DNA of 64,000 nt from Alphaproteobacteria bacterium (GCA_965261735.1 OZ253470.1:4250980-4314979); one strand, 5' to 3'. Shown: positions 1,600 to 45,777, counted from the stretch's first letter. Translations and numbers: made by a program. The notes: generated by a model from the sequence alone, not told the origin.

Positions 1600-2950
1600 G
1601 CTATCCACAGCGGAGGCCATCGCGGTTCCGGTTTAGGGTTGGGCTAGTGCAAACCAACCTAACCCGAAGGAGAACCACGATGACCCAGGACATGATGACC
1701 CTGCGCGCGCTTTTGGAGAAGAGCTCCGATGCCGATCTGCTTTGCGAGATGATCGGCTTCACGGCCGAGCCGCTGATGGCACTGGAGGTTGAGGGCCTGA
1801 CCGGCGCCGCTCACGGCGAGCGCTCGGCGGATCGTATCACCCACCGCAACGGCGACCGCGACCGGTCCTGGGAGACGCGGGCCGGCACGGTCGAGCTGAA
1901 GATCCCGAAGCTGAGGAAGGGGAGCTACTTCCCGGGCTTCCTGGAGCCGCGGCGGATGGCCGAGAAGGCGCTGGCTGCGGTGATCCAGGAGGCCTACATC
2001 CAGGGCGTGTCGACCCGCTCGGTCGACGACCTGGTGCAGGCCATGGGCATGTCGGGCGTCTCCAAGAGCCAGGTCTCCAGGCTGTGCGGCGAGATCGACG
2101 ATAAGGTCAACGGCTTCCTCGATCGATCGCTGGAGGGCGACTGGCCCTATCTGTGGCTCGACGCAACCTATGTGAAGGTGCGCGAGGCCGGGCGCATCGT
2201 CTCGGTCGCGGTGACCGTGGCTGTGGCCGTCAACGACCAGGGCCGCCGCGAGGTCCTGGGCATGGCGATCGGCGCGTCTGAGGCCGAGGCCTTCTGGACC
2301 GAGTTCCTGCGCTCGCTGGCCCGGCGCGGGCTGCGTGGCGTGAAGCTGTTGATCTCCGACGACCACAAGGGTCTGAAGGCCGCCGCGACCCGGATCCTCG
2401 GCGCCACCTGGCAAAGATGCCGCGTGCACTTCGCCCGCAACCTGCTGGCCCATGCCGGCCGCCAGGGCCGGCGCGTCGTCTCCGCCTTCGTCGCCACCGC
2501 CTTCGCCCAGGAGGACGCCGACAGCGCGAAGGCCCAGTGGCGTCAGGTCGCCGACCAGCTCAGGCCCAAGGTGCCCAAGCTGGCAGTTCTCATGGACGAA
2601 GCCGAGCACGACGTCCTCGCCTACATGACTTTCCCCAAGGAGCACCGCCAGAAATTGCACTCCACAAACCCGATCGAACGGCTCCATGCCGAGGTCAAGC
2701 GCCGCACCAACGTCGTCGGCATCTTTCCCAACGAAGCCGCCATCACACGGCTCGTCGGCGCCATCCTTCTCGAGCAGAACGATGAGTGGGCCGTCTCAAG
2801 GAGATACATGACGCTGGAATCCATCGCTCCGCTGAGCGATGGTGTCCCCATCACGCTGCCCACCGTGGCAGCCTGAACGTCCCGGGCGGGCGCCGTAGCC
2901 CGGCCCGGGGTTCGTGGGCGTTGCCAACGCCGCCACGATCCCGCACTCAG
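1600..2950 (+). mobile_element. IS256-family insertion sequence, copy a; ends not resolved
   Basis: Transposase gene lies immediately downstream of the aprA stop. I could not identify terminal inverted repeats by eye, so the boundaries are approximate. Confidence 0.35.
1680..2876 (+). CDS. IS256-family (mutator-type) transposase
   Basis: 399-aa product with the typical IS256 Tnp layout ([14 protein letters not shown]..., DDE region ...[10 protein letters not shown]...[12 protein letters not shown]...[21 protein letters not shown]). The ATG lies 11 codons inside ORF 1647..2876. Confidence 0.85.
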
Positions 2951-3158
2951 AACTCGCGACCCTCGGGCATGATACGAAAGTCGGGGCCATCGCTGGTGCG
3001 CGTCGGCGCGGTCGACGATGCGCAGACGGCACTGGCGGTGGTCGCCAAAGGAACGTGCCGACCGCGGCGAGGTCGTCATCGGCGACTCCAAGGGCGCCGG
3101 CGAGCTCGGATGAGGCGGCCGCCCAAGGGCGCGCCGCACCGATGCGACGCGCCGTCTC

Positions 3159-4082
3159 TCAGCGGGATCGGCGCCTTTTAGGTTGCGCGTCGCGAGCTTC
3201 TGCGAGCACCGTACCCTCGATGTTGGCGTCGGTCAGGTTGGCCTGGAACAAATCCGCGTCCGAGAGGTCGGCGCCGCTCAGGTTGGCGGGCCACATCTGC
3301 GCTTTCTCCTCGCCATCCGCTCCTTTGAGCTCAACGGGTCCCAAATCCGCGTGGGACAGTTTGGCGCCCCGTAGATTGGCGTTGCTCAGGTTGCATCCCC
3401 TTAGGTCGGCATATCTGAGATCGCCACCGGTTAGGTTCGAGTCTTGAAGATTGCAAAGAACGAACTGACCCGACGAGAGGTTGGCGCCGGCCAGGCTGCA
3501 ACCGCTGAGGTCGGCGCCGCTCAGGAAGACGCCGGCGAGATCGCCGCTGGAAAAGTCCTGGCCCGCCAACTCGGCGCGGCACCCTACGGTGCCCGAAGTA
3601 TCCTCCCACAACGCATGATCGCGCAGCATGACCTGGATGTCGAAGGGCAGGCGGCCGGTATTGCGGCTCACTTCCGCTCCCTGCAGATCCACGCCATTGA
3701 GCTCAACCTCGGCGAGGATGGCGCCACGCAGGTTCGCGCCCTGCAAGCGCGCCTGGCTGAGTACGGCGCGGCGTAGGTTAGCGCCGGTTAAGTTGGCGTC
3801 CTTGAGGCGCGCCGACTCCAGGTTGGCGTCGGTCAGGTCGACGCCACGCATGTCGGCGCTGGCGAGCGACGCCTCTTTGAAGTTGGCCTTTATCATCGAC
3901 GAATTGCGCAGATTGGCATGGTTGAGTTTGGCCTTCTCGAAGTCTGATTCGTCGAGCATGGCCTCGGAGAGGTCGGCGCCGCGCGCGACGATCTCGGCGG
4001 AAAGGAGGGCACCTGCCCGCAGGTCGGCGTCGCGCAGAATGGCTCCCTTGAGCTTGGCGCCGTGCAAGCGGATACCGCGCAA
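3159..4082 (-). CDS. Pentapeptide-repeat protein; 5' end abuts an IS fragment and may be truncated
   Basis: 307 aa made almost entirely of A(D/N)LxG pentapeptide repeats (ANLSGADLSDADL...). The upstream end runs straight into an internal IS1595-A fragment at 4100. Confidence 0.7.
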   Translation of the reverse strand: MRGIRLHGAKLKGAILRDADLRAGALLSAEIVARGADLSEAMLDESDFEKAKLNHANLRNSSMIKANFKEASLASADMRGVDLTDANLESARLKDANLTGANLRRAVLSQARLQGANLRGAILAEVELNGVDLQGAEVSRNTGRLPFDIQVMLRDHALWEDTSGTVGCRAELAGQDFSSGDLAGVFLSGADLSGCSLAGANLSSGQFVLCNLQDSNLTGGDLRYADLRGCNLSNANLRGAKLSHADLGPVELKGADGEEKAQMWPANLSGADLSDADLFQANLTDANIEGTVLAEARDAQPKRRRSR

Positions 4083-4099
4083 ATCGGCGCGCGCGAAAT

Positions 4100-4285
4100 T
4101 GGCTCCGCTTGTCAGTAACGATCAGCGATCCCGGCGCGACGGTGCTCTCGACGAACCCACAGAGCGACTCGGCGCTACGGTCGAGCACGACGGCGAGCCG
4201 AACGCGTCCGGCATAGCGTCCGTCTTTCCGGTTGTCGAGCTTGGTGCCCGGCTTTCGATGACGCACCTCGATGGCACAGGAGACG
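4100..4285 (-). mobile_element. Internal fragment (about 185 bp) of IS1595-family element 'IS-A'
   Basis: Reverse-complement match to the interior of the intact IS-A copy at 35820-36924. It encodes ...VRHRKPGTKLDNRKDGRYAGRVRLAVVLDRSAESLCGFVESTVAP... with neither IS end present. Confidence 0.6.
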
Positions 4286-4434
4286 GGTATAGCGTCATTC
4301 GCGCAATATTTCTCCCCCCCTTCCGCTGTGCCGATGCTTCATGTCAGTCGGCGCGATACGTTGCCTCGGCGCGACACTTGCCGCGACCGCGCTCATCCTC
4401 AACAATGAGGACAACTCGATGGGCAGCGTGCGAC

Positions 4435-5073
4435 ATGGCGGCGCCGAGCGACACCAAGATTAACGTGCACACGGCTTTCGCGACGCCGGTGGCGACGGCG
4501 CAGCTGGCCGGGGCCGAGCACCTTAACAAGCGACTGGCGCAACTGATCCGCTCGCGCACGGACAGCCACTCGAGCACCCGGCACAGCAATCTTGGCGGCT
4601 GGCAGTCGAGCTGGGACTTCCTGGACTGGGGCGGTACCGCGGGCCGCGAGCTGTTCGATCACGTGACGTCGCTCGCGGACCGTCTCACCGCCGACCGGGA
4701 GGGCCGGCCGGTCAAGGTCAAATGGAAGATCAACGCCTGGGCCAACGTCAACGAGCTCGGCCACGGCAACGAGTTTCACACCCATCCGGGGGCCTTCTGG
4801 TCCGGCACCTACTACGTCGACGATGGCGGAATCGTCGCCGACCCCTCGCTCGGCGGCGAATTCGAGTTCCAGGATCCGCGCGGCGTGCTGCCGGCGATGT
4901 ATGCCCCACTACTGTGCATCGCCATGCCGGGCGGCGCGTCAATGGGGGCCAGCGAGACGCTGCACCCGCGCGCCGGCATGATGGTCCTGTTCCCGGCCTG
5001 GCTGTCGCACGGGGTGCGCCCCTATCACGGCACCGGCCAGCGCATCTCCGTCGCGTTCAATCTAAGCGTGTGA
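4435..5073 (+). CDS. Putative 2OG-Fe(II) oxygenase family protein (TIGR02466/PF13759-like)
   Basis: 212 aa from the in-frame ATG at 4435 inside ORF 3628..5073; upstream of that ATG the ORF is low-complexity read-through. Motifs: NEFHTHPGAFWSGTYYV ... LFPAWLSHGV. Confidence 0.55.
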   Translation: MAAPSDTKINVHTAFATPVATAQLAGAEHLNKRLAQLIRSRTDSHSSTRHSNLGGWQSSWDFLDWGGTAGRELFDHVTSLADRLTADREGRPVKVKWKINAWANVNELGHGNEFHTHPGAFWSGTYYVDDGGIVADPSLGGEFEFQDPRGVLPAMYAPLLCIAMPGGASMGASETLHPRAGMMVLFPAWLSHGVRPYHGTGQRISVAFNLSV

Positions 5074-5882
5074 GGGAAACGGTGGCGGGACGGCTTGAGG
5101 ACAAGGTCGCGATCGTCACCGGGGCCGGGTCGATCGGCCCCGGCTGGGGCAACGGCAAGGCGGTGGCGGTGCTGTTTGCCCGCGAAGGGGCCAATGTCAT
5201 GGCCCTCGACATCAATCTGGAGGCGGCGCAGGAAACCGCCGCCATCGTGGCGGCCGAGGGTGGCAGGTGCACGGCGCGGCGCACCGACGTGACGCGGGGC
5301 GACGAGGTGGCCGACGCCGTGGCCCACTGCATCGACATTCATGGCCGCATCGACGTGCTCCACAACAATGTCGGCATCGCTGAGGTCGGCGGCCCCATCA
5401 CTGCCAGCGAGGAAAGCTGGGACCGGGTCAACGCCGTCAACCTCAAGAGCATGTTCCTGACCTGTAAGCACGTGCTCCCGCACATGGTGGCACGAGGCGC
5501 GGGCACGATCGTCAACGTCGCCTCGATCGCCGGCATTCGCTGGATGGGCGTGCCCTACATCTCCTACAGCGCGACCAAGGCGGCCATCCTCGCCTTCAGC
5601 CGCTCGGTGGCGCTCGAACATGCGGGCGACGGCATCCGCTGCAACAGCATCCTGCCCGGGCTCATGGATACGCCGATGGTCGAGCACGCGCTGCGCGATT
5701 TCTACGCCGACGGCGACATTGCGCGCATGAAGGAGATTCGCGGCGCGCAATGCCCGACGGGGCGCATGGGCGACGCCTGGGACGTGGCCTTTGCCGCCCT
5801 CTACCTCGCTTCCGATGAGGCCAAGTACGTCACCGCCGCCGAGCTCGTCGTCGATGGTGGCGTCAGTGCCAAGAGCGCATGA
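5070..5882 (+). CDS. SDR-family NAD(P)-dependent oxidoreductase
   Basis: GTG at 5070 overlaps the upstream stop (GTGA). It has the TGAGSGIG-type Rossmann motif (VAIVTGAGSIGPGWG) and a YxxxK catalytic motif (YSATKAA). Confidence 0.8.
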   Translation: MRETVAGRLEDKVAIVTGAGSIGPGWGNGKAVAVLFAREGANVMALDINLEAAQETAAIVAAEGGRCTARRTDVTRGDEVADAVAHCIDIHGRIDVLHNNVGIAEVGGPITASEESWDRVNAVNLKSMFLTCKHVLPHMVARGAGTIVNVASIAGIRWMGVPYISYSATKAAILAFSRSVALEHAGDGIRCNSILPGLMDTPMVEHALRDFYADGDIARMKEIRGAQCPTGRMGDAWDVAFAALYLASDEAKYVTAAELVVDGGVSAKSA

Positions 5883-5928
5883 GCGCGTGCCGGCCCGGGG
5901 TGAAGGGTGTGGCGCCGCGGACCGGGCG

Positions 5929-7169
5929 ATGACCGCGCTGACGCGCCGGGCGCTTGCCGCGCTCGATGCCGGCGACCCGCTCGCCGGCTTTCGCCGCGCC
6001 TTCGCACTGCCCAAGGGCGTGATCTACCTCGACGGCAATTCGCTCGGGCCGCTGCCGAGAGACGCCGCGCGTCGGCTCAACGAGGTCGTGCGCCGCCAAT
6101 GGGGCGACGATCTGATCCTAAGCTGAATCGCCACCAATGGATCGATTGGCCGGCGCGAGTCGGCGACAAGATCGCGCGTTTGATCGGCGCCACTCGGGGC
6201 GAGGTCGTGGTCGCCGATTCGACGTCGATCAATCTGTTCAAGCTGCTCGCGGGGGCGCTGCGTGCGCGCCCCAAACGCTCCGTCATCCTGTCCGAGCAGG
6301 GCAACTTCCCGACCGATCTTTATGTCGCCCAGGGATTGACCGAGCTCCTTGGCGGCCGTCACGAGCTGCGGCTGGCCGCGAGCGAGGAGATTACGGCGAG
6401 CATCGACGAGGACGTTGCCGTCATCATGTTGACCCACGTCGACTACCGCTCGGGCGCCATGCACGACATGGCGGCCGTCAACGCGGCCGGCCACGCGAAG
6501 GGCGCGCTGATGCTGTGGGACCTGTCGCATAGTGCCGGTGCCGTGCCGCTCGACATGCGGGCCGCCGGCACCGATCTGGCGGTCGGTTGCGGCTACAAGT
6601 ACCTGAACGGCGGCCCCGGGGCGCCGGCCTTCCTGTTCGTCGCCGAGCGTCTGCAGGACGGGTTGCACCAGCCGATCACCGGGTGGATGGGACACGCCGA
6701 GCCCTTTGCCTTCGCGCCCGACTATCGCCCGGTCACGGGGATCTCCCGCAATCTCGTCGGTACGCCGCCGATCCTCGCGCTTGCCGCGCTCGAGACCGGC
6801 GTCGATGTCCTCTTGCGTGCCGATCCCAGCGCGCTGCGCGAGAAATCGCTCGCTCTCACCGACCTCTTCATGCGCCTCGTCGAGCAAGAATGCCCGGGCC
6901 ATGGGTTCACCATCGCAACCCCGCGCGAGACGGCAACACGCGCGAGCCAAGTGGCGCTACGCCACGACGAGGGCCTTCCCATCATGCAGGCGCTGATCGA
7001 AGCAGGCGTCATCGGTGATTTTCGCGCGCCCGACCTGCTACGGTTCGGCTTCGCACCGCTCTACAATCGCTACACCGACGTCTGGGATGCGGTGGCGGCG
7101 TTGTCCGAGATCATGCGGACGCGAGCGTGGGACAGCCCCGCCTTTCGCCGGCGCGCCGTCGTGACCTGA
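5929..7169 (+). CDS. kynU: Kynureninase, with an apparent 1-nt deletion frameshift at about 6125
   Basis: N-terminus MTALTRR...[12 protein letters not shown]...WGDDLI lies in frame 1 and stops at TGA 6124-6126. Frame 0 then continues ...[35 protein letters not shown]...[15 protein letters not shown]... to 7169. Restoring one G in AGCTG[G]AAT gives LILSWNRHQW, which matches the kynureninase consensus (LIRSWN). Confidence 0.75.
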
Positions 7170-7186
7170 GGCAAACGCAAAGAGTC

Positions 7187-8041
7187 GTGCCGAAATCCCG
7201 CAAAGCCGGCAGCACCGGCGATAGCCTTCCGGACGGCGCCCACACCGATTTCGGCGACTCGCTGAGCTACGCCGACTATCTCGGCCTCGGCTCGCTGCTG
7301 TCGAGCCAGCACCCGCTCTCGGAGCGCCACGACGAGCTCCTGTTCATCATTATCCACCAGACGACGGAGCTGTGGTTGAAGCTCGCCCTTCATGAGCTCG
7401 GGGCGGCAACGGCGTCGATTCGCGAGGACCGGCTGAAGCCCGCCTTCAAGATGCTGGCACGCTTCTCGCGCATTCAATCGCAGCTCATCCAGTCGTGGGA
7501 CGTGCTGTCGACCTTGACGCCCTCGGACTACATGACCTTTCGTCACGTTCTCGGCCGCGCCTCTGGCTTTCAGTCGCACCAATACCGGCTGATCGAGTTC
7601 GCGCTCGGCAACAAGAACCGCGCCCTGTTGGCGCCGCACCGCCACGACGCCGCCGTCCTGAGCCGCCTCGATGCGGCGCTCAACGCGCCGAGCCTCTACG
7701 ACGAGGTGATCCGCCTGCTGGCGCGGCGCGGGTTCGCACTCGCGCCCGCCTGCGTCGAGCGCGATTGGAGCGCGCCCTACGCGGCGGACGCCTCCGTCTC
7801 CGGCGCCTGGCTCGAGGTTTACCGCGATACCGCGACCCATTGGGACCTTTATGAGCTCGCCGAGGAGCTGGTCGATCTCGAGGATTGGTTCCAGCAATGG
7901 CGCTTTCGCCACGTCACCACGGTCGAGCGCATCATCGGCCACAAGCGCGGCACCGGAGGCACCGCTGGCGTGAGCTACTTGCGAAAGGCGCTGGATGTGC
8001 GCTTCTTCCCTGAATTGTGGGACGTGCGCACGGCTCTCTAG
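7187..8041 (+). CDS. kynA: Tryptophan 2,3-dioxygenase
   Basis: [18 protein letters not shown]...[19 protein letters not shown]...[20 protein letters not shown]: full-length TDO signature. Probable GTG start at 7187, with AAAGAG 4 nt upstream; it follows kynU directly. Confidence 0.8.
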
Positions 8042-8067
8042 CGCGCCCAGTACCTCGGATCGGAAGT

Positions 8068-9782
8068 ATGGCCAAAGTCTACCGCCGGACGTTCGAGTGG
8101 CGCTTCGACCAGCCGCCCGAGGCGCTGTGGCCGGCGCTCGCCGATACGGCCAAGTTCAACGAGGCCGCCGGCATCCCCAAACACGCGATCGAGGAGGTGA
8201 CGCAAGCGGACGGCTCGGTGCGCTTCTTCGCCGAGGCGCGCCGGGGACCTATTCGCATTGCCTGGGAAGAGATCCCGATGGAGTGGGTCGATGGCCAATG
8301 GTTTCGCCATCTCCGCGTGTTCTCCCGGGGCCCAATCCACAGCCTGTGCGCGACGCTGCGCCTCGAGCCCGACGGCCGCGGCGGCGCCCTCGGCCACTAC
8401 GAGATCGAGGCCACGGCTGCCAACTTGCTCGGCACCCTCGCCCTGGCTACCGTTTTCTTTTGGGTCGCACGGCGCATCTTCACCGGCCTCGCCGACACCG
8501 CCGGTGACTGGGCGGCAGGGCGCCGCGAGGCACCCTTCAAGGCGCCGCCGCGGCTCTCGGCTGCGGCCCACGCCCGGCTCGACGCGATGACGGCGCGCAT
8601 CGACCGGTCCGCCAACGGCCACGGCCTCGGTGGCCGGCTGGGCGGCTGGATCGCGGCCGCGCAGGAGGTCGATCTCATGCGCATCCGGCCGGTGGCGCTG
8701 GCCCGTCAATGGGGCGAGGACGAGCGCGACGTCATCGAGATGTGCCTGCAGGCGGTCTCGGAGGGGCTGCTCGAGTTGCGCTGGGACCTGCTGTGTCCGC
8801 GCTGTCGCGGCGCCAAGCTGGTGGTCGGTGCACTCGACCAACTGCCGCGCGGCGCACACTGCGCTTCGTGCAACATCGACTACGACCGCGAGTTCACCCG
8901 CAACGTCGAGCTGACGTTTCATCCCGCGCCCGCGGTGCGCGACGTGATCGACGGCGAATTTTGTCTCTTCGGGCCGATGTCCACGCCCCACGTCAAAGTG
9001 CAGGCGACGGTCGAGCCCGGCGAGACGCTGACGCTGCCGCAGCCGCGGTCGCGGTCGCCGCGGGGGAGGTTGCAAAAGAAGGAGAGGTCGCGCTCGTCAA
9101 CGGTGAGGACCGCCGCCGCACCTTCATTATCGAGTCGCGCGAGTGGATGCGCGACGCGCTAACCGCGCATCGCGTCACCACTATGCAGGCCTTTCGCGAC
9201 CTGTTCGCGGCCGAGGCGCTTCGGCCCGGCGACGAGGCGGCCATCTCGAACGTCACGCTCATGTTCACCGACCTCAAGGGCTCGACCGAGCTCTACGAGC
9301 GGGTCGGCGATGCCGCCGCGTTCCGCCTCGTGCGCCAGCACTTCGCCTTCTTGGCCCGGGTCGTACGGGCCAACAATGGCGCGATCGTCAAGACCCTCGG
9401 CGATGCCATCATGGCCGCGTTCGCCGATCCCGCGGATGCCGTGCGCGCGGCACAGGCGATTCAAGAAGAGGTGACGGAGTTCAACGAGGCCTCGGGTGGC
9501 GAGGACATCGTCATCAAGCTCGGCCTTCACGGCGGGCCTTGCATCGCGGTGGAGCTGAACGACCGCCTCGACTATTTCGGCTCGACCGTGAACATGGCGG
9601 CGCGTCTGCAGGGCGAAAGCGTCGGCAGTGATATCGTCCTGTCCGAGGCCATCGTCAACGACCCCGCCGTCACGCACCTCCTGAGCGCCGCCGAGCTGAC
9701 GACCGAGCGCCGGTCGATCAAGGGCTTCGACGAGCCGATCACGGTGCGCCGCCTAACCGGCAAGAGCCTCCTCGGCGCGTGA
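8068..9782 (+). CDS. Zinc-ribbon (DUF5939-like) N-domain fused to a class III adenylate/guanylate cyclase; frameshift at about 9030-9100
   Basis: ATG at 8068, with GGAAG upstream. The N-domain carries 2x CxxC (LLCPRCRGA...CASCNIDYD). Frame 1 stops at 9162, and frame 0 carries the cyclase core (VTLMFTDLKGSTELYERVGD...IVKTLGDAIMAAF...GLHGGPCIAVE) to 9782. The two frames overlap in a GC-rich GCGGTCGCGGTCGCCGCGGGGG tract. Confidence 0.65.
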
Positions 9783-10714
9783 GCGAAGGTCGCTCTCCGG
9801 GGATCGTCGTCCCGCTGGTGATGCTGCTCGCCGCCGGTCTCGCCTGGGGGGCGATCTTTACCGTCAACAGGATCGCCGCCGAAGCCGGCGTACCGCCAGT
9901 CGTTTACGCGTTCTGGTCGATCCTACTGGCCGGGCTCACCATGGCGGTCGTGTCGCTCGCGGTCGAGGGGCTGCCACGCCTAGGCCCTCGCTTCCTGCTG
10001 TTCTATTTCGTCTCCGGCGTCGCCAATTTCGGCTTCGCGATCATCCTGTTCGCCTATGTGGCCGCCGAGCTGCCCGCCGGTGTGGTGACGCTGGTGATGA
10101 TGATGACGCCGACCATGACGTATGCGTTCGCCTTCGCGCTCCGAATCGAGCGGTTTCGCGTCGCGAGTTTCCTCGGGCTGCTGTTCGGCATCGGTGGCGT
10201 GCTGATGATCGTGCTCCCGGATTTCAGCCTGCCGTCGCGCGACATGGTGGTCTGGTTCCTGCTCGCCCTGTTGGGGCCGACCTCGTTTGCCGCGGGCAAC
10301 GTCTATGTGGCGATGTACCGCCCGCCCGAAGCGCCCGGATTGATGTTGACCGCGGGCCTCTGTCTCGGCGCGTGCGTCTTCATCCTGCCGGCGCTTGTCA
10401 TCGCCGGCGGCGACCTCGACCCCTTGGCCCTACGGGCCGAGGGACTCGCCGCGATGGGTCTGGCGGCGCTGATTTACATCGTCACCCTGTCACTGTTTTT
10501 CGAGATCATCCGTCGCGTCGGGCCCCTGTTCTGGAGCCAGATCGGCTACGTCGCCGTGGCCTCCGGGATTGTGTGGGGCGCTGCCGTGTTCGGCGAGCGC
10601 CTCAGCGTCGGCATCTGGCTCGGCGCGGGCCTCATGGGCGTCGGATTGGCGCTCGTCAACCGAGGCGTGCGCGATGCCGCGCGTGAAACAGCGGGCCGCG
10701 TGGGGGCGGACTAG
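9779..10714 (+). CDS. DMT-superfamily (EamA-like) transporter
   Basis: 311 aa with 10 predicted TM helices and duplicated EamA-type halves. The start overlaps the cyclase stop by 4 nt. Confidence 0.8.
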   Translation: MSEGRSPGIVVPLVMLLAAGLAWGAIFTVNRIAAEAGVPPVVYAFWSILLAGLTMAVVSLAVEGLPRLGPRFLLFYFVSGVANFGFAIILFAYVAAELPAGVVTLVMMMTPTMTYAFAFALRIERFRVASFLGLLFGIGGVLMIVLPDFSLPSRDMVVWFLLALLGPTSFAAGNVYVAMYRPPEAPGLMLTAGLCLGACVFILPALVIAGGDLDPLALRAEGLAAMGLAALIYIVTLSLFFEIIRRVGPLFWSQIGYVAVASGIVWGAAVFGERLSVGIWLGAGLMGVGLALVNRGVRDAARETAGRVGAD

Positions 10715-10735
10715 GGCGGCGATGCCGCGAGTACA

Positions 10736-12729
10736 CTAAAGGTAGAAGACGTCGAGCTCGCCGTGCCGCCCGCGAATGGGGTGGCGCCCGGCTTCTTTGG
10801 CGACGATCGTGGCGCCCGCGGCTTGTGCGGTGGTGCCACTCAACAGGATGGTGACGGCGGAGCCGGTGCGCCCGACCTCCTTCGCCAGCTGCTCGAGGCG
10901 GTTGGCTGTATTCACGGTGTCGCCGACGATCGTGTAGTTGATGCGGCCCGGCGCACCGATATTACCGACGATCACCTCGCCGCTGTGCAGCCCGATCCGC
11001 ACCTCGACCGGCGGCGTCCTCAATGGGGTCGCGTCCGCGTTGTCGGCCTCGACGGCGGCGCGAATGGCGAGCGCCGCCCGGCACGCGCGCGCCGTGTGGT
11101 CGGGCTGGCTCTCGGGAGCGCCCCAGAACGCCATCACGGCATCGCCGATGAACTTGTCGATGGTCCCGCTCTCGTCCTCGATGCAGGAGCTGAGGACGGC
11201 GAAATGGTGGTTGAGGAAGGCGGCGGTCTCTCCGGCCGTCATGGCCTCCGACTGACTCGTGAATCCGGCGATGTCGGTGAAAATGACGGTTGCCTCGCGG
11301 GTGACCGATTCCTGGACCGCGGATTCGCCGTAGCGCACGAGTCGGCGCACCAGGTTGCGCGGCACGTAGGTCTCGAACCAGCGCAGGCCCGTGACCATGG
11401 AGTTGAAGGCCTGCGCCGAATCGGTGATCTCGGTGAAGAGGCTGATGGGGAGCCGCGGCACACGCGAGAGCGACAGGTCGCGCACCTGTTGCGCGGCGCC
11501 GGCCAGGCGGTTGAGGGGCGTGCTCAGGTAGCGCGCGAACGCGTAGGCCGCCACAAGCGCAGCAGTACGAGCAGGCCGGCGATCGCCGCCCATCGCAGGC
11601 GTAGGAGCTCATCGGTAATTCGCGCCGCGGGGAAGTAGACGCCGGCGAGCCACGGCGTATCACCGTAGGTGGTGAGGCGGCGCGACAGCACGGCGACACT
11701 GTTGCCGCCAACGTCGATGACGTTGAAACCGGTGCTGCCGGCGAGCCGCGCGACTCGGCCGACGGCGCGCTGGGGCTCGGTCAAAGCCTGGAGCACCGGG
11801 TCCGCCACTTCAGCCAGCGGCGGCATGGGCTGGGCGGCGGTCGTCGGAAAGGGGGTGTCCACGAGGCGCGGATGCGCCAGCACGAAGTTATCGTCGTAGA
11901 GCACGAAGGCAGACCCGTCGAGCCTGCTGGCGGTCTCGGCGAGCAATGCCGACAGCCGGTCGATGCGCACCGTGGCGGCGAGCAGGCCGAGGTAGCGGCC
12001 CCCGCGGTGTACGGCGTAGCGCGCGTTGATCAGCGTTACATCCGCGGGTTCGGGTTTGATGACCTCGGCCCAATAAAGACCGGCGCGCCCGCGTCCCTCC
12101 TCGAAACCGTCGCGGATCACCGACATCTTCGAAATATCCAGGACCTGGAGGTTGACCCCATCTTCTGTGCGCAGCGCGAACACCATCTTTAGATCGTCGC
12201 GGATGAAGACGACGGAGCGGACCTGCGGCGTCGCCGCCAGCGCCCCCGAGAGATACTTGCCGAGGTCGGCGTCGACGGTATGGTCGATGGCGCCACTCTC
12301 GATCTGCCGGCCGATGTGAGAGAGCTGTTCCTCGGCCGGCCGCAAGTGCTGGGCGATTCGCCCAACGATCAACTCGATCGTGGCGGCGGACTTGTCGCGC
12401 AACAGGTCGAGCGTGTTCTCTCTGGCGCTCCACATTCTGAGCGCGAGCACAGTGACGACGGCGAGGAGAACCAGACCGCCGAAGCCGAACACGAGGCCCA
12501 TCGTAATGTTGATCTGAAAGCGCGAAGGGACCGCCGGCGCGAGGTCGGTGGGCGGCTGCGTGTCTATTGTTTCCTGCGGCATCGGCAGTGGCTTCAATGA
12601 TGTCCTTCGGTGCGGAAGACTAAGGGAAATGCCCGTGCATTGCATGGAAATCGGTGCCGCGGATTGAGTTCGTTTCCAATGGCCCCACACGTCATGCGCT
12701 GGTACAACGGCATAGCGCTGTAAGCCCAA
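10736..12729 (-). CDS. Membrane sensor adenylate/guanylate cyclase (TM, periplasmic sensor domain, TM, HAMP, class III cyclase); 1-nt frameshift at about 11555-11565
   Basis: ORF 11524..12729 encodes TM1, a roughly 280-aa periplasmic domain and the start of TM2 (WAAIAGLLVLL). ORF 10736..11593 continues in another frame with ALVAAYAFARYLSTPLNRLAGAAQQV (HAMP) and the cyclase core (ATVIFTDIAGFTS...IDKFIGDAVMAFWGAP...GLHSGEVIVGNIG). I reconstructed the join by translating the sequence by hand. Confidence 0.65.
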
Positions 12730-12742
12730 GGAGGGAGCGGTC

Positions 12743-13465
12743 GTGCACGATGTGAGCCTGCCACGGGAGATCGTCGATGCGGTCGTCGCCGCACGCGGCC
12801 GGCGCTATGTTTACGAGGCTATAGACCCGCGCACCACGGCCTTGGTCGTCGTCGACATGCAGAATATGTTCGTCGCGGACGAGGCCCCCTTCGAGGTGCC
12901 GAGCGCGCGTGACATCGTCCCCAACATCAACCGCCTGGCCGCTGCCGTGCGCGGCGCCGGCGGTCAGGTCGTGTGGATTCAGGCGACGCAAGGGGCCGAA
13001 GGAAGTGGGCAGTTCTTCGCGCTGTATTTCGACAACTTCGTCCCTTCGGAGCGCCGTCGCGTCTGCCTCGATGCCGCGCGGGAAGGCAGCCCCCATCACG
13101 CGCTGTACGCGGGTCTCGACGTGGCGCCGGGCGACCGCCGGATCAAGAAGTCTCGCTTCAGCGCCTTTATTCAGGGCGCTTCGGACATCGAAAGGCACCT
13201 GCGCGAGGGCGGCATCGACACGCTTCTCATCGCCGGCACGGCGACCAACGTGTGTTGCGAATCGACGGCGCGCGACGCCATGATGTTGGGCTTCAAGATC
13301 ACCATGTTGTCGGACGCCACGGCCTCGCACAGCGATGCTGAGCACTTGGCCGGCCTGCTGACCATGTTTCGCTACTTCGGTGACGTGCGCACGACGGCGG
13401 AGGCAATCGCCCTGCTCGAAGCAGGTGAGGCAAAAGCGCCGGTGCTTGCGGCGGCTACGGCCTAG
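12743..13465 (+). CDS. Isochorismatase-family (cysteine) hydrolase
   Basis: ALVVVDMQNMF ... IAGTATNVCCESTARDA: isochorismatase-fold motifs including the catalytic Cys. Confidence 0.75.
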   Translation: MHDVSLPREIVDAVVAARGRRYVYEAIDPRTTALVVVDMQNMFVADEAPFEVPSARDIVPNINRLAAAVRGAGGQVVWIQATQGAEGSGQFFALYFDNFVPSERRRVCLDAAREGSPHHALYAGLDVAPGDRRIKKSRFSAFIQGASDIERHLREGGIDTLLIAGTATNVCCESTARDAMMLGFKITMLSDATASHSDAEHLAGLLTMFRYFGDVRTTAEAIALLEAGEAKAPVLAAATA

Positions 13466-13505
13466 CGGGGCCGAGGCGCTAGTCCGCGCCACGGGGAGCC
13501 GGCAT

Positions 13506-14495
13506 ATGGAACAGAGGCAATTGGGTCCCCTCGGATCGGTCAGCGCGCTGGCGCTGGGCGGTGGGGGCCTCGGGCAGGTGTGGGGCGCCACCACCCGCGA
13601 CGAGGCCGTGGCGACGGCGCGGGCCGCAGCCAATGCCGGCATCACGCTATTCGACCTCGCGCCGCTCTACGGCAACGGCGAGTCGGAGCGGGTCATCGGC
13701 GAGGCGTTCGCGGGACAGCTTCCGCCGGGCGTGCGCGTGGCCACCAAGGTCATGCTCGGGAACCCGCCCGCCGCCGGCGTCCATGACACTATCGTTCATT
13801 CGCTGAACGAGAGCCTGCGACTTCTCAAGCTCGATCGCGTAGCGCTCCTTCAACTCCACTCCAATCTTATCCCCGACGGCCTCGTGGTCGACGGCGACAC
13901 CGAGCGTCAGCACCGCATCATGACCCAAATGACGACGTACGCCCGCTATGCGCGACCGGTGTTGGAGCGGCTGCGCGAGCAGGGCCGTATCGACGCCTGG
14001 GGTATTTCCGGGATCGGCCGGCCCGATTGCATCATCGAGGCGATCGCCGACGACCCCCCGCCAGCCACGGTTCAGTGCATCGCAAACCTGCTCGATTCCC
14101 CGGGCGGGCTGTACCGATTCGATGAACCGCCGCGGCCGCGCGACATCATCGCGGCGGCCCACGCGCGCGGGGTCGGCGTGCTCGGCATCAGGGCGGTGCA
14201 GGCGGGCGCGCTTAGCGACGGTTTCGACCGCGACGTCCCCGACGATTACCCGGAGATGGCCGATTTCCGACGGGCCGCGCCGTTTCGCGCCGTGGCCGCC
14301 GAGGTTGGCGAGAATCCCGCCATTTTGGCGCACCGTTATGCGCTATCGATGGCGGGCGTCGGGAGCGTGGTGCTCGGCGTCAAGAACCGGTCCGAACTCG
14401 AGGACTGCCTCGCCGCCGAGGCGGCGGGACCGCTCGACGCAGGCGCCATGGCCAGAATCGACGCAGCCGTCGGCCCGGGCGATGAGAGGCCTTAG
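13506..14495 (+). CDS. Aldo/keto reductase
   Basis: ATG at 13506 with GGAG 8 nt upstream. AKR hallmarks: ITLFDLAPLYGNGESERVIGEAF, GISGIG. Confidence 0.8.
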   Translation: MEQRQLGPLGSVSALALGGGGLGQVWGATTRDEAVATARAAANAGITLFDLAPLYGNGESERVIGEAFAGQLPPGVRVATKVMLGNPPAAGVHDTIVHSLNESLRLLKLDRVALLQLHSNLIPDGLVVDGDTERQHRIMTQMTTYARYARPVLERLREQGRIDAWGISGIGRPDCIIEAIADDPPPATVQCIANLLDSPGGLYRFDEPPRPRDIIAAAHARGVGVLGIRAVQAGALSDGFDRDVPDDYPEMADFRRAAPFRAVAAEVGENPAILAHRYALSMAGVGSVVLGVKNRSELEDCLAAEAAGPLDAGAMARIDAAVGPGDERP

Positions 14496-14527
14496 GGACA
14501 GGGCGAGTAGAGCAGGGGACTATCGCG

Positions 14528-15151
14528 ATGTACTACGATGTCGAGCGCAACGATCACGGCCTGCCGCACGATCCCTTCAAGAGCTGCGTCGTTCCGCGCC
14601 CGGTCGGGTGGATCAGCACGCTGAGCCGCGCCGGCATCGCCAACCTCGCACCGTTCAGCTTTTTCAACGGGGCCGGGCTCAATCCGCCGCAGGTGATGTT
14701 CGCGTCGGCGCATCAGCACGTCGAAGGCGGCGCCACCGATACCCTGATCAACATCGAGGAGACCGGTGAGTTCGTCGTCAACATGGCGACGTGGGAACTA
14801 CGCGAGCAGATGAACGCGACCTCCAGGGAGGTTGAGCGATCGGTCGACGAGTTCGTGCTCGCGGGCCTCGAGAAAGTGCCGTCGGTTCAGGTCAAGCCGC
14901 CTCGCGTCAAGGCCGCGCCCATCCACCTCGAATGCACCTATATCCGCACCATCGACCTCCCCGCCAACGATCCCAAGCAGCCCAACCTGATGGTGATCGG
15001 CCGGGTCGTCGGCATTCACATCAGTGACGACGTGCTCACCGAGGGCATGATCGACATGAGCAAATTCAAGCCCATCGCCCGCCTCGGTTACCAGGACTAC
15101 TCCGTGGCCGATAATTTTTTCACCATGCCGTTTCCCTACACGCGTGCGTGA
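14528..15151 (+). CDS. Flavin reductase-like FMN-binding protein
   Basis: 207 aa with a split-barrel flavin reductase-like domain (VVPRPVGWISTLSRAGIANLAPFSFFNGAG). Confidence 0.7.
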   Translation: MYYDVERNDHGLPHDPFKSCVVPRPVGWISTLSRAGIANLAPFSFFNGAGLNPPQVMFASAHQHVEGGATDTLINIEETGEFVVNMATWELREQMNATSREVERSVDEFVLAGLEKVPSVQVKPPRVKAAPIHLECTYIRTIDLPANDPKQPNLMVIGRVVGIHISDDVLTEGMIDMSKFKPIARLGYQDYSVADNFFTMPFPYTRA

Positions 15152-15176
15152 GGCGGCCTAGACTCGGAGTCGCGCC

Positions 15177-15578
15177 ATGACCGACGAGAAACGCGGCCTC
15201 GGTTCGCTCCTGCGGCGCTTTACCGAGCCGCGCGGCGCCGGCCACGTCATGATCGAGGCAAAGGATCTCGAACAACGTGTGAGTCAGCGCGAGGACATCC
15301 TCATCATCGACGTGCGCGAAGCCGACGAGTTCGTCGGTCCATTCGGCCACATTCCGGGAGCCCGCCACATCGCGCTCGGGGACATACAGGGTCGGATCGA
15401 GCAGCTCAGCGGCGAAAAGGAGCGGCCGATTGCGCTGGTATGCCGGACCGACAAGCGCTCGGCATCGGCTGCCGCGCTCCTTGGGGCCGCGGGCTTCAAG
15501 CACGTCATGGTACTGCGCAACGGCATGGAGCAATGGAACAGAGAGCGCTTTGAGGTCGACAACAGCGCCCCCGGGTGA
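15177..15578 (+). CDS. Rhodanese-domain sulfurtransferase
   Basis: 133 aa; IIDVREADEF ... LVCRTDKRSASAA with the active-site Cys in the CRxxxR loop. Confidence 0.8.
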   Translation: MTDEKRGLGSLLRRFTEPRGAGHVMIEAKDLEQRVSQREDILIIDVREADEFVGPFGHIPGARHIALGDIQGRIEQLSGEKERPIALVCRTDKRSASAAALLGAAGFKHVMVLRNGMEQWNRERFEVDNSAPG

Positions 15579-15625
15579 CATGGGCAGCGGCGTTTCGCGG
15601 GCCATCACCAGCGAGGAGGAAGGTC

Positions 15626-15916
15626 CTTGCCTATCCGGTTTACACCCACACCCACTAGGGCTAGAATGGGCGCAACCCGGATATAGGGGAGCGCGCCATG
15701 GATGTTCTCGACCGCGCCGATCTCCCATTCCCGCATTCGCTACCCGAGTTCCAGCGACTTTTCCCCGATGATGCGGCCTGCGCCGCCTACCTGGAGAAAG
15801 CCCGCTGGGGAGACGGCTTTGCCTGCCCGCACTACGGCACGGCGGGAGAGCCGTTCCACTTTGAAAACCGCCCTGGCGTCCTGCGCTGCCGCAAGTGCCG
15901 CCAGAACACCGGGCTG
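15626..15916 (+). mobile_element. IS1595-family 'IS-A' copy 1: left end plus the first 70 codons of the transposase, 3'-truncated
   Basis: Begins with IS-A IRL CTTGCCTATCCGGTTTACACCC, followed 72 bp later by MDVLDRADLPF...CRKCRQNTGL. Homology to the intact copy (35820-36924) ends at 15916, just before an inserted IS3-family fragment. Confidence 0.7.
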
Positions 15917-15943
15917 TCTGACGTCAGCGCCTTTGGGACAAAT

Positions 15944-16245
15944 TGAGGTAATTGCATAACGGAGGATTTCTGGCTCATCGTAGTGACCGAAGGGAACGAA
16001 GATGAGACAGAAATCAATGAGCAAGAACGACCCGGCGGAGAGAGCTGTTCGGGATATTCGCCGCAAGACACGCAAGCAGTATTCGGCTGAGGAGAAGATC
16101 CGGATTGTGGTGTCGGGCCTGCGCGGCGAGGAGAGCATCGCCGCCTTGTGCCGCCGCGAGGGCATCGCCGAGGGTCTGTATTACAGCTGGTCGAAAGAGT
16201 TTTTGGAAGCGGGCAAGAAGCGGCTCGCCGGCGACACCGGCCGAA
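15944..16245 (+). mobile_element. IS3-family fragment (left IR plus truncated orfA)
   Basis: Starts TGAGGTAATTGC..., the TG-initiated IR typical of IS3. OrfA (MSKNDPAERAVRDIRRKTRKQYSAEEKIRIV...GKKRLAGDT) breaks off at about 16240; there is no orfB. Confidence 0.6.
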
Positions 16246-16403
16246 ATGTCCCGCACCAGACACTCAACCGTCTTGTCGGGGAGCACGAGGGCAGCCGGAG
16301 CGCCAATGTTCCAGCGCATGTAGACGCGCCGTTCGGCGGTGTGCCGCATCACGGTCGTGCGGCTGGTTATTTCATTCGGCATGGCCATGGACCATGGGCC
16401 CAA
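16245..16403 (-). pseudogene. Possible N-terminal fragment of a PilZ-domain protein, cut by the IS3 fragment
   Basis: Minus-strand MAMPNEITSRTTVMRHTAERRVYMRW...VECLVRDISAGVAGEPL carries the RxxxR...DxSxGG-like PilZ motifs, then runs antisense into IS3 sequence. Confidence 0.3.
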
Positions 16404-16595
16404 CGAGGGTCATTCGCGGCGCCTACCCTACGGCCCTTGTCTTAAGCTATTCCCAACGCCTCGAGCGGCCGACTAGAAGCCAAATCCCGGAGAGAGTGGC
16501 GCCGGGCGGGTAGGGCACAAATTTGTGGCGCCCACTACCTTCGGACGGCGTTAGACTCCAACACTGCCCACCACATGAAAGCGCGGGAGGAGAAC

Positions 16596-17255: not shown

Positions 17256-17281
17256 GGGCCGCGGCTTGCGGGGCAGGCCGC

Positions 17282-17306: not shown

Positions 17307-17314
17307 AGCCGTTG

Positions 17315-17749: not shown

Positions 17750-18319
17750 GGCAGCCCCCCCCTTAGGCTAGCGACACGTGCATTCGGGGCCGGATTGTGC
17801 GCGGGAGTGCGCTGAGACTCAAGCAGTTAGGCGCTTTAGGCGTTTTCCGTCGCGCGCGCCTCGAATCCCGTCAGCTCGCAATAGTAGCGCCAGAATCCGC
17901 GCACCGGCACTTCGGTCAGGATCGTGTCCTGGTCCTCGATCGGCCCGGTGGCGCCCACCTCGACAACCGAGTACGCGTGGCTGCCGGCATGGGCCCTGCG
18001 CTGTGCGAGGACGCCGGCCTCGCCGTCCTCCAGCGACACGAGGCACGCAGAGGTCCGACGAATTGGACCTGGCGCATCCGCGCCGCCCGAGGCGGCCGCT
18101 CGACTGGGTTTTGCTTGATAATGAGTAGCGTTAACACGACATGACGAGTGGCGTTGACAGGACGCCCGGTCGCCGACATCCTGCGGCCGCCCGCAAGTCG
18201 CCGCCGACTTGCGGTCAGGAGCCGAACTTCGCGCGGTGTGGCTGTGCTTAAGGAATTCAACCGCCGCCATTCGGCACAAGGAGTGTGAATGAGGAGAGGA
18301 TCGCGCGCTGTTTGTCGGA

Positions 18320-19144
18320 TTGACGGCGCTGGCGCTCATGGCGGGTGCGGCGCCTGCTGCGGTCGAGGAGCCCCCGGCCCAGGACTGTGACTGGCTCGCA
18401 GCCGCGCCGAGCGACGGTTTCGGCCGCGGGGTCCCGTTCAGCGAACTCGACGGCGATCGCGCCGTTGCTGCGTGCCGGACGGCGGTGAGGGAGCACCCCG
18501 ACTCGCTGCGCCTCAAGGCCCATTTGGGGCGCGCGCTCATCAAGGTCAGCGAGTTCGACGAGGCCCGCACCGTCCTCACCAAGGCGGCGCGCGATGGGCA
18601 ACCAGGCGCGCAGGCCACCTTGGGCGCCATCTACTACTTTGCGATCGGAGTGGAGCGCGATTACGGGCGCGCACTCGACTGGTTCGAGAAGGCGGCCAAA
18701 CAGGGCAACGCGGTGGCCGAGACCAATCTTGGCGTCATGCATACCTTCGGCCCCGGTGTCCGATCGAACCCAGACCGCGCCGTCAGGTGGTTCACGAGCG
18801 CCGCCGAGAAGGGCCACCCCGATGCCCAGGCCAACCTTGGCAACATGTACGAGAAAGGCGAGGGGCTCGGCCGCGACTACGAGGAGGCCGCGCGCTGATA
18901 CAGCGCCTCGGCGCGGCAAGGCAATGCCAAGGGTCAAGTGAACCTCGCCCGTATGTACGAAGCCGGGACCGGCCTCGCGATCGACGAGGGCCGGGCGCTG
19001 TTCTGGTACGCGCTGGCGACGGAGTGGGGCGCGGGCGCGGTGCGCAATCTCGCGAGCGAAAGCGTCGACCGCCTAAAACGGTCGCTCGACGAAGACGAAG
19101 TGACGCGGATCTACGCGGAGGTCGCGGCCTGGAAGCCCGAGTAA
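18320..19144 (+). pseudogene. Secreted Sel1-repeat (TPR-like) protein interrupted by an in-frame TGA at 18896-18898
   Basis: ORFs 18320..18898 and 18938..19144 share one frame and form one continuous Sel1-repeat array (AQANLGNMYEKGEGLGRDYEEAAR*YSASARQGNAKGQVNLARMYEAGTG). The stop sits exactly where the conserved Trp (TGG) of the Sel1 motif is expected. Confidence 0.6.
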
Positions 19145-19205
19145 CCTCCATCATTCGGAGCCACACCCGGGTGCCCGGTAATACGCGTCGCCGCGGCGCG
19201 AGCCC

Positions 19206-23353: not shown

Positions 23354-24459
23354 CTTGCCTATCCGGTTTACACCCACACCCACTAGGGCTAGAATGGGCG
23401 CAACCCGGATATAGGGGAGCGCGCCATGGATGTTCTCGACCGCGCCGATCTCCCATTCCCGCATTCGCTACCCGAGTTCCAGCGACTTTTCCCCGATGAT
23501 GCGGCCTGCGCCGCCTACCTGGAGAAAGCCCGCTGGGGAGACGGCTTTGCCTGCCCGCACTGCGGCACGGCGGGAGAGCCGTTCCACTTTGAAAACCGCC
23601 CTGGCGTCCTGCGCTGCCGCAAGTGCCGCCAGAACACCGGGCTGACGGTGGGAACAGTGATGGAGCGTAGCCACACTCCGCTGAACGTCTGGTTCTGGGC
23701 CGCTTATCTGGTCGCCAGTCAGACGCCCGGCATGTCCGCCGTGCAGTTTCAGCGGCAACTTGGTCTTTCGCGCTACGAGACGGCCTTTCAAATTCTCCAC
23801 AAGCTCCGCTCGGGCATGGTGCGGCCCAACCAAGACAGGATCGGTGGACAGCCCAAGAACCATGTTGAGGTGGACGAAACCTGGGTTGGCGGGCGAACGC
23901 GTGGGGAAGGCCGTGGTGTTCACCACAAGGTTCCCGTCTCCTGTGCCATCGAGGTGCGTCATCGAAAGCCGGGCACCAAGCTCGACAACCGGAAAGACGG
24001 ACGCTATGCCGGACGCGTTCGGCTCGCCGTCGTGCTCGACCGTAGCGCCGAGTCGCTCTGTGGGTTCGTCGAGAGCACCGTCGCGCCGCGATCGCTGATC
24101 GTTACTGACGATTGGAGCGGCTATGCTGGCCTCGGTAAGCGCGGCTATGAGCACTTCGCTGTTGCCGAGTGTGGTGATCCAGAGGTTGCCGAGCAATACC
24201 TGCCGATCATCCATCTGGTTTTCGCCAACCTGAAGACGTGGCTGATCGGTATCTCACCACGGCGTTAGCCACCAGCACCTACAAGCCTACCTCAACGAGT
24301 TCACCTTCCGCTTCAACAGGCGGTTCTACCCGTTCAACGCCTTCCGCTCATTGCTCGGCATCGCGGGCGACACCTCTGCTCCAACCTATGCCGAGCTTTA
24401 CTCGGGAGAGTGGCGGCACCCTACATGTAGCGGTCATGGGCGTTAACCGGATAGGCAAG
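23354..24459 (+). mobile_element. IS1595-family 'IS-A' copy 2 (complete ends; transposase frameshifted)
   Basis: IRL CTTGCCTATCCGG and IRR CCGGATAGGCAAG, 1106 bp. It starts 13 bp after the VOC paralog-2 stop. Confidence 0.75.
23426..24446 (+). pseudogene. IS-A transposase with a 1-nt insertion
   Basis: Identical to the intact 339-aa copy at 35892..36911 except for GGTATCTCACCACGG versus GGTATCCACCACGG, which gives a premature stop at 24268. Confidence 0.75.
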
Positions 24460-26499: not shown

Positions 26500-26520
26500 T
26501 TCGGCGGTGGACTAGCTGGG

Positions 26521-44180: not shown

Positions 44181-44215
44181 TTGACTGCGTCTGCCCTCAT
44201 AAGAGCGAGAGTTTG
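44181..44215 (+). promoter_or_regulatory. Possible sigma-70-like promoter (TTGACT, 17-19 bp, TAAGAG) upstream of the ParB-like gene
   Basis: CTTGACTGCGTCTGCCCTCATAAGAGCG lies about 80 bp upstream of the ATG at 44294. Sequence-only guess. Confidence 0.25.
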
Positions 44216-44293
44216 AGCCAAAGGCGGGCGAGGGCGGATGCCGAAGAGGGTGCCCCCGCCCGGTTCCGCATTCACGCAATCCCGGAGACTGAA

Positions 44294-45340
44294 ATGCACG
44301 ACCCCGAACGCGATATCTCTGACATCCCGCTGTCCCAACTCGAACTCTCGCCCGACAATGTGCGCAAGACGCCGGCGGATGATTCGGCCTTCACCGAGCT
44401 CAAGGCCTCGATCGCCGCCCACGGGCTGCTCGAGAACCTGATTGCCCGTTCCATGGGACCCGGCGCGGATGGCCCCGGGCGCTACGCGGTGATCGCCGGC
44501 GGACGGCGGCTTGCCGCGATGCAGGCGCTGGCCGCCGAGGGCACGCTGGACGAGGACCACCCCGTGCCCTGCCGCATGATCGGAAGCATCGTGGCGGCCG
44601 AAGAGGTTTCGCTGGCCGAGAACAGTGTCCGCGCCGCAATGCACACGGCCGATCAGGTCGAAGCCTTCCGCCGCCTGGCCGATGCGGGTAGCACGGCGGG
44701 CGCCATCGCGGCGCGCTTCGGGGTCTCGGAGCGCACCGTGGAGAAGCGGCTGCGGCTCGGCAACGCCGCACCGGTACTGCTCGAGGCCTACCGCGCGGGC
44801 GACATCGATCTGGAAACATTGATGGCCTTTGCCGTCACCACGGATCAGGCTCGCCAAAGCACGGTCTGGGCGGCGGTGAGCCAGCAGGGCTACCGGCCCG
44901 GCGCCTGGCAGATCAAGCGCCTGCTGACCGAGGACCGGGTTCCGGCTACGTCCGCCATCGCGCGTTTCGTCGGCATCGAGGCTTACGAGGCGGCGGGCGG
45001 CCAGATCGACCGCGACCTGTTCGCCGAGGAGGACGAGCGGGGGATCTGGTTCGACGATCCCGATCTGTTGAACAAGCTCGCCATGGACAACCTACAGGCC
45101 GTGGCGAGGGAACTGGAGACGCGCGGGAAATGGGCCGAGGCGCGGCTCGACGTGGACTGGAACGCTACCGCGAGCTTTGGGCGGGTCGGCCGAGCCGACG
45201 GACGAGGAGAAGGCCGAGATCGAACGCTTGAGGACCCGCAACGACGAACTCGCCAATATGGAGGACGACGGCTGGACCGAAGAATTGGTCGAGGAAGCCG
45301 ATGCCAACGAGACGCGCCTGGACGAGATCGAGGTTCATCG
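44294..45340 (+). pseudogene. ParB-like nuclease-domain protein (ICE/plasmid-type), disrupted by two frameshifts
   Basis: N-terminal ParB/Srx domain (LSQLELSPDNVRKTP...AHGLLENLIARS...YAVIAGGRRLAAMQAL), then EAYRAGDIDLETLMAF... The frame then shifts at about 45180 to the coiled-coil segment EPTDEEKAEIERLRTRNDELANMEDDGWTEELVEEADANETRLDEIE, and again at about 45340. Confidence 0.6.
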
Positions 45341-45777
45341 ACAGCGATCTCTATCTGCCCTCGATGCACTCGCAGGGCATCGATGCCATCGCCATCATCA
45401 TCGATACCTCCGCCTCGCTGCCGGGCGAAACGCTGGCCCTGTTCTGGGCCGAGGTCCGCGAGATCGCCGCCGAACTGCAACCGAACAGCATCTATGTCCT
45501 TCAGGTCGACGCGGTGCTGCAGGACGCGGCCCAATATCCCGCCGGGGAACTACCGGACAGCATCACGATCAAGGGACGCGGCGGGACCGATTTCCGGCCA
45601 GGCTTCGCATGGCTCCATGAGCATGGGGTGCATCCAAGCTGCTGCCTCTACCTGACCGACATGGAATGTGACAGCTACCCCGAGGCCGCGCCCCCATATC
45701 CTGTGGCTTGGGTCGTTTGGGGCGGCGATCGATACCGCCAGCCCTGGGGCGAGCGCATCGACATCGGACCAGCCTGA
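45340..45777 (+). pseudogene. VWA-like (DUF2201-type) domain fragment fused downstream of the ParB-like gene
   Basis: IIIDTSASLPGE has the MIDAS DxSxS motif; ...GRGGTDFRPGF...LYLTDMECD follows. This is only the C-terminal VWA module of the usual metallopeptidase-VWA protein. Confidence 0.5.

Follow-up and report, generated by a model that had tools for sequence, protein, structure and literature searches.

Probable gene-specific decay of kynU and two class III cyclase genes in an alphaproteobacterium rich in insertion sequences

When three neighbouring genes of a single assembly each fall into two reading frames, the question arises whether the organism has lost these genes or the assembly has misread them. 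The question is raised here by a stretch of 64,000 nucleotides (nt) from an Alphaproteobacteria bacterium (GCA_965261735.1, OZ253470.1:4250980-4314979), hereafter called the window, with a GC content of about 64% and drawn from a contig of 5,031,631 bp. The genes for kynureninase (kynU), for a class III cyclase with a DUF5939 part and a zinc ribbon, and for a dCache-HAMP class III sensor cyclase are each broken into two overlapping open reading frames (ORFs) lying in different frames, at the positions already named in a preliminary description made from the sequence alone. The latter took all three for single-nucleotide frameshifts, each to be mended by one restored base, and offered two accounts, namely pseudogenisation along with a bloom of insertion sequences (ISs) or indel errors of long-read assembly. 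The comparison reported here speaks for pseudogenisation in most of the lesions, the IS bloom being real, and for error as a possibility in kynU; taken as a whole, the locus very probably reflects a genuine decay of particular genes on which selection has relaxed, in an alphaproteobacterium with an expanded IS load, and mostly not sequencing error.

The lesions were sized by combining the ORF listing of the window, direct reading, placement of Pfam domains and a multi-way alignment with near-identical metagenome contigs from ENA, which were located via exact-protein look-ups and are 99.5-99.95% identical to the window. These comprise L081/L096 (ERZ25071004 contig_21, 1.04 Mb; 99.87% identity over window 1-20711), L082/L095 (ERZ25068966, 62.7 kb; 99.84% over 1868-18364) and L083 (ERZ25073897 contig_14, 1.15 Mb; about 99.5%), as well as two contigs of ERZ25069191, of which L094 carries the window haplotype over 10836-20899, with five single-nucleotide polymorphisms (SNPs) and no indel, and L101 covers 25877-32159 at 99.7-99.9% identity. 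Besides, L091/L100 (ERZ25071132) is collinear with the window at 26.9-46.6 kb, L097, L098 and L099 (ERZ25067264, ERZ25766206 and ERZ26167216, respectively) cover the kynU region, and L086 and L087 are two loci on ERZ28763636 contig_9, of 5.0 Mb. For the broken genes of the window, Pfam distributes the expected domains over the separate pieces.

The kynU gene (5929..7169, plus strand) comes closest to what had been described. The ORF listing gives a first frame at 5929-6126 and an overlapping one, in another frame, up to 7169, corresponding to pieces of 65 and 356 amino acids (aa). In the alignment, the window lacks one G at 6124/6125, reading GCT-GAAT against GCTGGAAT, and the GG of the latter stands at this site in six assemblies (L081, L082, L083, L097, L098 and L099); the frame of the window is interrupted at codon 66, with a TGA at 6124-6126. 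This is exactly the base that had been proposed as missing at about 6125, and its restoration does complete the gene: the intact allele of L081, 413 aa long, differs from the window by this G and one synonymous SNP only, and matches the TIGR01814 equivalog with 314.7 bits for a cut-off of 246.4, over positions 2-400 of 400. The 356-aa and 65-aa products are recorded on the 5,031,631-bp contig only. Another lesion, the loss of a C at window position 6825, is found in L083 and a 5.0-Mb contig, on which the resulting 355-aa product is likewise recorded, and two to three lesion types of kynU occur in the strain clusters.

The pathway partner of kynU, kynA (tryptophan 2,3-dioxygenase; 7187..8041, plus strand), is intact in the window, where it matches TIGR03036 over its full length with 419 bits for a cut-off of 390.7, and is called at 284 aa in L081; elsewhere, the members of its cluster span the gene, barring differences in start codon and one 128-aa piece on a 10.4-kb contig. 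As in known kynA-kynU kynurenine operons, the two genes are adjacent and, in the intact allele, both give full-length equivalog matches, whereas the window strain differs by its kynU being cut at codon 66. The gene tables list no kynB (formamidase) in the immediate neighbourhood of the window locus.

The DUF5939/zinc-ribbon cyclase gene (8068..9782, plus strand; pieces of 364 and 211 aa) is broken where expected but by another kind of lesion. Its ORFs run over 8068-9162 and then, in a second frame, to 9782, and the switch formerly attributed to a single base at about 9040 corresponds to a 97-nt deletion between 9036 and 9037, inside a CCG microhomology at 9037-9039, which costs the gene some 32 codons in addition to the shift of frame. 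The 97 nt are kept in L083 (positions 10451-10547) and L097, and absent from the window, L081 and L082. What the deletion removes is the coding sequence for ARLELGDCRLRTLEMGGESEVHYTGSGFPTLTA (residues ARLELGD...PTLTA). Other strains retain these residues in their 603-aa alleles, and homologues from other species, about 600 aa long, have a diverged version of them, from which it follows that the deletion is the derived state. Intact 603-aa alleles are represented by P0148, P0151, P0155 and P0157. They have the same architecture and length as the DUF5939-class III adenylate/guanylate cyclases (PF19363 plus PF00211, about 600 aa), the two domains having been placed in one chain in P0148 and P0151, are 71-72% identical to homologues from metagenome-assembled genomes and conserve the CPRC...C..C cysteines of the zinc ribbon. 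The window copy differs in that the 97 nt are gone between the DUF5939 part and the cyclase domain, which lie in different frames. Among other strains, loss of a C at 8501 is encountered, with a 173-aa piece on at least four contigs, and L097 combines the loss of a C with that of 7 nt; at least three lesion types are present in the strain clusters. Over its positions 5702-17140 (window 4288-15625), L083 carries, together with the loss of a C in kynU and of a C in the DUF5939-cyclase gene, a CAG-to-TAG change at codon 23 of a gene for a 2OG-Fe(II) oxygenase; nine of its 37 private substitutions, i.e. about a quarter, are G-to-T or C-to-A transversions, their direction not being polarised.

Regarding the dCache-HAMP class III cyclase (10736..12582, minus strand; pieces of 352 aa and 272-285 aa), the ORFs lie at 12582-11524 and 11593-10736 on the minus strand. 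Here again the place assigned to the switch, at about 11560 in the second transmembrane segment (TM2) and HAMP region, was right and the single base was not: the lesion is a 4-nt deletion (GCAA on the plus strand) between 11558 and 11559, in TM2 just before HAMP, and adjoins a GCA repeat. Sensor, TM2, HAMP and cyclase are consequently not read in a single frame in the window, the split falling at TM2. An unbroken gene of 616 aa is found in L082, L083 and the 5.0-Mb contig_9, and Pfam places dCache_1, HAMP and Guanylate_cyc in one chain in the L082 allele. The deletion is common to the window, L081 and L094 and is linked to the alleles of two SNPs close by, at 11820 and 11917; altogether, at least five lesion types of this gene are found among strains.

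A similar picture emerges for a gene encoding a secreted Sel1-repeat protein (18289..19150, the end being approximate; plus strand). The nonsense TGA that had been noticed in it lies at 18896-18898, and the intact allele P0186 (285 aa) indeed carries a tryptophan there, which amounts to a change of TGG to TGA. In addition, loss of a CG at 18301, in a (CG)4 tract, puts the start codon of the signal peptide out of frame. Both lesions are shared by L094, while L081 has the TGA along with a G of its own inserted at window position 18463. At least five lesion types are counted among strains, namely two different Trp-to-stop changes, the loss of CG, the gain of G and a C-terminal frameshift. The (CG)n tract follows directly upon the start codon (18289-18310), with three repeats in the window and L094 and four in L081 and L082; it is prone to slippage and sets whether the signal peptide is in frame.

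Could such split genes still serve the cell, be it as sites of programmed frameshifting, as phase-variable loci or as sensor and catalytic halves that are expressed on their own? The C-terminal cyclase pieces do keep a complete Guanylate_cyc domain, possible starts (GTG at 9147, ATG at 11593) overlap the upstream pieces, and the 5' lesion of Sel1 sits in a short (CG)n tract whose length differs from strain to strain. However, position and type of the lesions vary by strain, whereas conservation would be expected of a programmed site; inspection of the junctions shows no slippery heptamer, no formal motif scan having been run; the 97-nt deletion takes out about 32 conserved residues; and the sole repeat tract is a (CG)3-4, far shorter than known contingency loci. 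Functional splits thus appear extremely improbable. Programmed frameshifting and the reading of TGA as tryptophan were also considered as such and rejected, since the lesion positions differ among strains and, for kynU, since the TGA is created by the deletion itself. The resulting fragments would probably be devoid of function.

The lesions are concentrated in particular genes. In an alignment of four strains and 11 genes, all five coding indels fall in the three broken genes, which account for 45% of the coding length (0.45^5, about 0.02), and a population census drawn from 90%-identity protein clusters assigns about 10 of 13 independent lesion alleles to 41% of the length (binomial p = 0.0095). 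Neighbouring genes of the same contigs, which serve as controls, are full length: the EamA-family transporter gene located between the two cyclases (9779..10714, plus strand) encodes 311 aa in seven of seven cluster members, with four synonymous SNPs and one non-synonymous, and the same holds for AKR (4/4), flavin reductase (7/7), rhodanese, DUF1761 and peroxiredoxin. Over the four strains and 11 genes, non-synonymous and synonymous changes (N:S) amount to 33:16, i.e. a ratio of their rates (dN/dS) of about 0.71, with 19:5 (about 1.3) in the three broken genes versus 14:11 (about 0.43) in the eight intact ones, a contrast whose direction fits relaxed selection (Fisher p = 0.13).

These figures could also be read as adaptive loss, whereby the inactivation of cyclic AMP (cAMP) cyclases, kynureninase and Sel1 would have been repeatedly selected during a change of niche. 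Several independent loss alleles of the same genes are indeed met with in a clade differing by 0.1-0.5%, and the dN/dS of about 1.3 in the broken genes points the same way. Intact alleles nevertheless persist in several strains, and the indel:SNP ratio of the broken genes, 5:24 or about 0.2, is near the value of neutrally evolving bacterial pseudogenes, so that adaptive loss need not be invoked; it is considered very unlikely. Under relaxed selection instead, a subset of genes, i.e. kynU, the two class III cyclases, Sel1 and some mobile-element genes, would have slipped out of effective purifying selection, and small deletions arising by replication slippage or microhomology, together with nonsense substitutions, would build up in them. 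Repeats of 3 nt, CCG and GCA, stand at the junctions of the 97-nt and 4-nt deletions, respectively. The lesions segregate as different alleles in different strains. In the window strain, kynU lacks 1 nt, the DUF5939-cyclase 97 nt and the dCache-HAMP-cyclase 4 nt, each loss abolishing the full-length product.

Further lesions of the window extend beyond these genes. In a ParB-like gene belonging to a mobile-element remnant (44213..45777, plus strand), a frameshift had been rightly recognised but again taken for a single nucleotide; it results from an 11-nt deletion between 45186 and 45187, where L091 reads GCGTCCGCAAC and encodes a 445-aa product with ParB_N. The remnant as a whole occupies 41250-46456 and includes DUF2924, the gene adjacent to it, an IS110 fragment, the frameshifted ParB-like gene and a DUF2201 VWA-like ORF; in the collinear L091, the gene adjoining DUF2924 is called a serine recombinase (Resolvase). 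In a copy of an IS1595-family element (23354..24459, plus strand), the inserted T previously reported is present at 24254 (GGTATC[T]CACC) when judged against the intact 339-aa copy at 35820-36924, and shifts the frame of the transposase. As for the cytochrome b561-like gene (Ni_hydr_CYTB), its frameshift was also correctly spotted, though not its position: the extra G stands at 27396 rather than 27392, in the non-homopolymeric context CTA[G]TCT, and is absent in L091 and L101. The product of this gene is 173 aa long in nearly all listed members of a 64-member cluster.

It remains to weigh whether the organism itself might have intact genes, all these frameshifts being mimicked by long-read assembly or consensus errors. 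The 97-nt, 4-nt and 2-nt lesions recur in assemblies of other samples, where they agree with linked SNPs, and the naming of the contigs suggests that some of these assemblies come from a different assembler. Since the 97-nt and 4-nt lesions are found in other metagenome assemblies (for the former L081 and L082, both more than 99.8% identical to the window), they are not base-calling slips; nor are multi-base deletions with microhomology or nonsense changes, such as TGG to TGA in Sel1 and CAG to TAG in L083, artefacts of base calling. The window assembly is not riddled with indel errors either, as not one indel separates it from L094 over 10 kb and a single unshared one separates it from L081: over 20.7 kb, the G of kynU is the sole indel without a match in another assembly. 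Errors would moreover be scattered at random, and the lesions are gene-specific. The marks of an artefact (privacy to one assembly, homopolymer context, random placement) are thus lacking in the 97-, 4-, 2- and 11-nt lesions as well as in the nonsense codons, and kynU alone is private and, weakly so with its GG, homopolymeric. In other words, kynU resembles known homopolymer indel artefacts, being a 1-nt deletion in a run of two G confined to one assembly, and the other lesions differ from these in being multi-base, shared or substitutions.

Several points nonetheless weigh against decay as the general explanation. The missing G of kynU lies in a GG pair and, recurring in no other sample, is private to the contig of the window, as is the extra G of the cytochrome b561-like gene. 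The independence of the samples is an assumption made from their differing ENA analysis accessions, and several comparison contigs bear coverage labels from 1.79x to 4x. Private homopolymer indels do occur in such low-coverage relatives: in L088, the phosphoglucomutase gene (about 15450-16350, outside the window) shows four private 1-nt indels in G/C runs within 730 bp and is split into three ORFs, where the other five assemblies have an intact gene of 459 aa, which looks like a local consensus error in a low-coverage contig; likewise, L099 (1.79x) has an additional C at the start of kynU and L097 (2x) has FliG in three pieces. Given errors of this type, part of the census of independent lesions may be noise. 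Finally, the dN/dS contrast between broken and intact genes is not significant, and that between indels and SNPs is borderline (p = 0.054). On balance, error fails as an account of the whole finding and is, as a general explanation, unlikely; for kynU taken alone, it is a serious possibility, though the private 1-nt deletion is rather to be regarded as probably biological.

The surroundings are in keeping with a genome in motion. At least 17 transposase ORFs are present in the 64 kb, from eight or more families: IS256, IS1595 (two subtypes), IS5-like/IS1182-like, IS110, IS21, IS630, IS3 and UPF0236. The transposase regions lie at 1647-2876, 19753-20862, 23354-25801, 29396-30484, 32409-37917, 39229-40338, 43080-43862, 47462-48528, 50922-52058, 54627-55715, 57647-60232 and 60707-63745. 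The IS5-like element alone is found in four copies of 1,089 bp. As IS copies are 97-99.9% identical to one another, transposition is recent, and strains differ in flanking sequence at IS elements; such IS load and IS-mediated differences of the flanks fit a lineage in genomic flux.

Segmental duplications are also observed. Two copies of a 903-bp NnrS segment lie at 30484-31385 and 46559-47461, with 99.9% identity and a 1-nt indel between them. The latter copy lacks its N-terminal part, matching the NnrS profile at positions 102-371 only, and directly adjoins an IS5-like element. The gene for an NMT1-family binding protein (window 38084-39121) occurs twice on ERZ28763636 contig_9, in two contexts (L086 and L087), one of them bordered by IS1595 copies, which indicates an IS-associated segmental duplication in the species. 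At 21251-23341, two tandem paralogous genes encode two-domain proteins of the glyoxalase/VOC superfamily (342 and 339 aa), for which the exact-protein look-up returned no match. An additional frameshift in the MFS gene near 56.1 kb, considered on the grounds of a phase switch in third-codon-position GC (GC3), was dismissed, given that this gene has a normal end and that the frame downstream of it is the C-terminus of an IS110-family remnant rather than its continuation. Scans of the window for Rfam families and tRNAs gave no hit. Concerning affiliation, kynA has nothing closer than 75% aa identity among GTDB species representatives, and the nearest non-self match of ClpA reaches 82%, with Zavarzinia and Skermanella at about 75%; judging from these protein identities, the organism is an uncultured alphaproteobacterium distant from both genera and without a close named relative.

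IS expansion together with pseudogenes is well known in recently niche-restricted bacteria, such as Sodalis glossinidius and SOPE, 'Nostoc azollae' 0708, Burkholderia mallei, Shigella, Bordetella pertussis or Mycobacterium ulcerans. The present lineage has in common with them many near-identical IS copies of several families, small frameshifting deletions and nonsense codons that differ by strain, and a genome that is still large, at about 5 Mb. It differs by the high GC content of the window; neither a reduced genome nor an AT bias is seen. The pseudogene fraction is a local one: over the first 20 kb of the window, four of some 17 genes other than those of ISs are pseudogenes. One might speculate, with little expectation of being right, that the lineage stands at the very start of genome degradation and that its co-circulating strains are shedding, side by side, one set of signalling and catabolic genes, whether after a recent move into a restricted niche, possibly one tied to a host, or under selection against cAMP signalling.

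The process being well known, the window is a further instance of it. For annotation, the three loci are best labelled as pseudogenes, with lesions of 1, 97 and 4 nt, and should not be repaired as if they were errors, kynU excepted. In terms of method, near-identical contigs from other metagenomes allow real lesions to be separated from assembly noise without resorting to reads, and a reading of the sequence by itself can take a 97-nt deletion for a slip of 1 nt. From a biological standpoint, provided that its habitat is established and only then, this organism would usefully offer one more lineage, of a little-known alphaproteobacterial group, in which IS expansion and gene-specific decay can be traced allele by allele.

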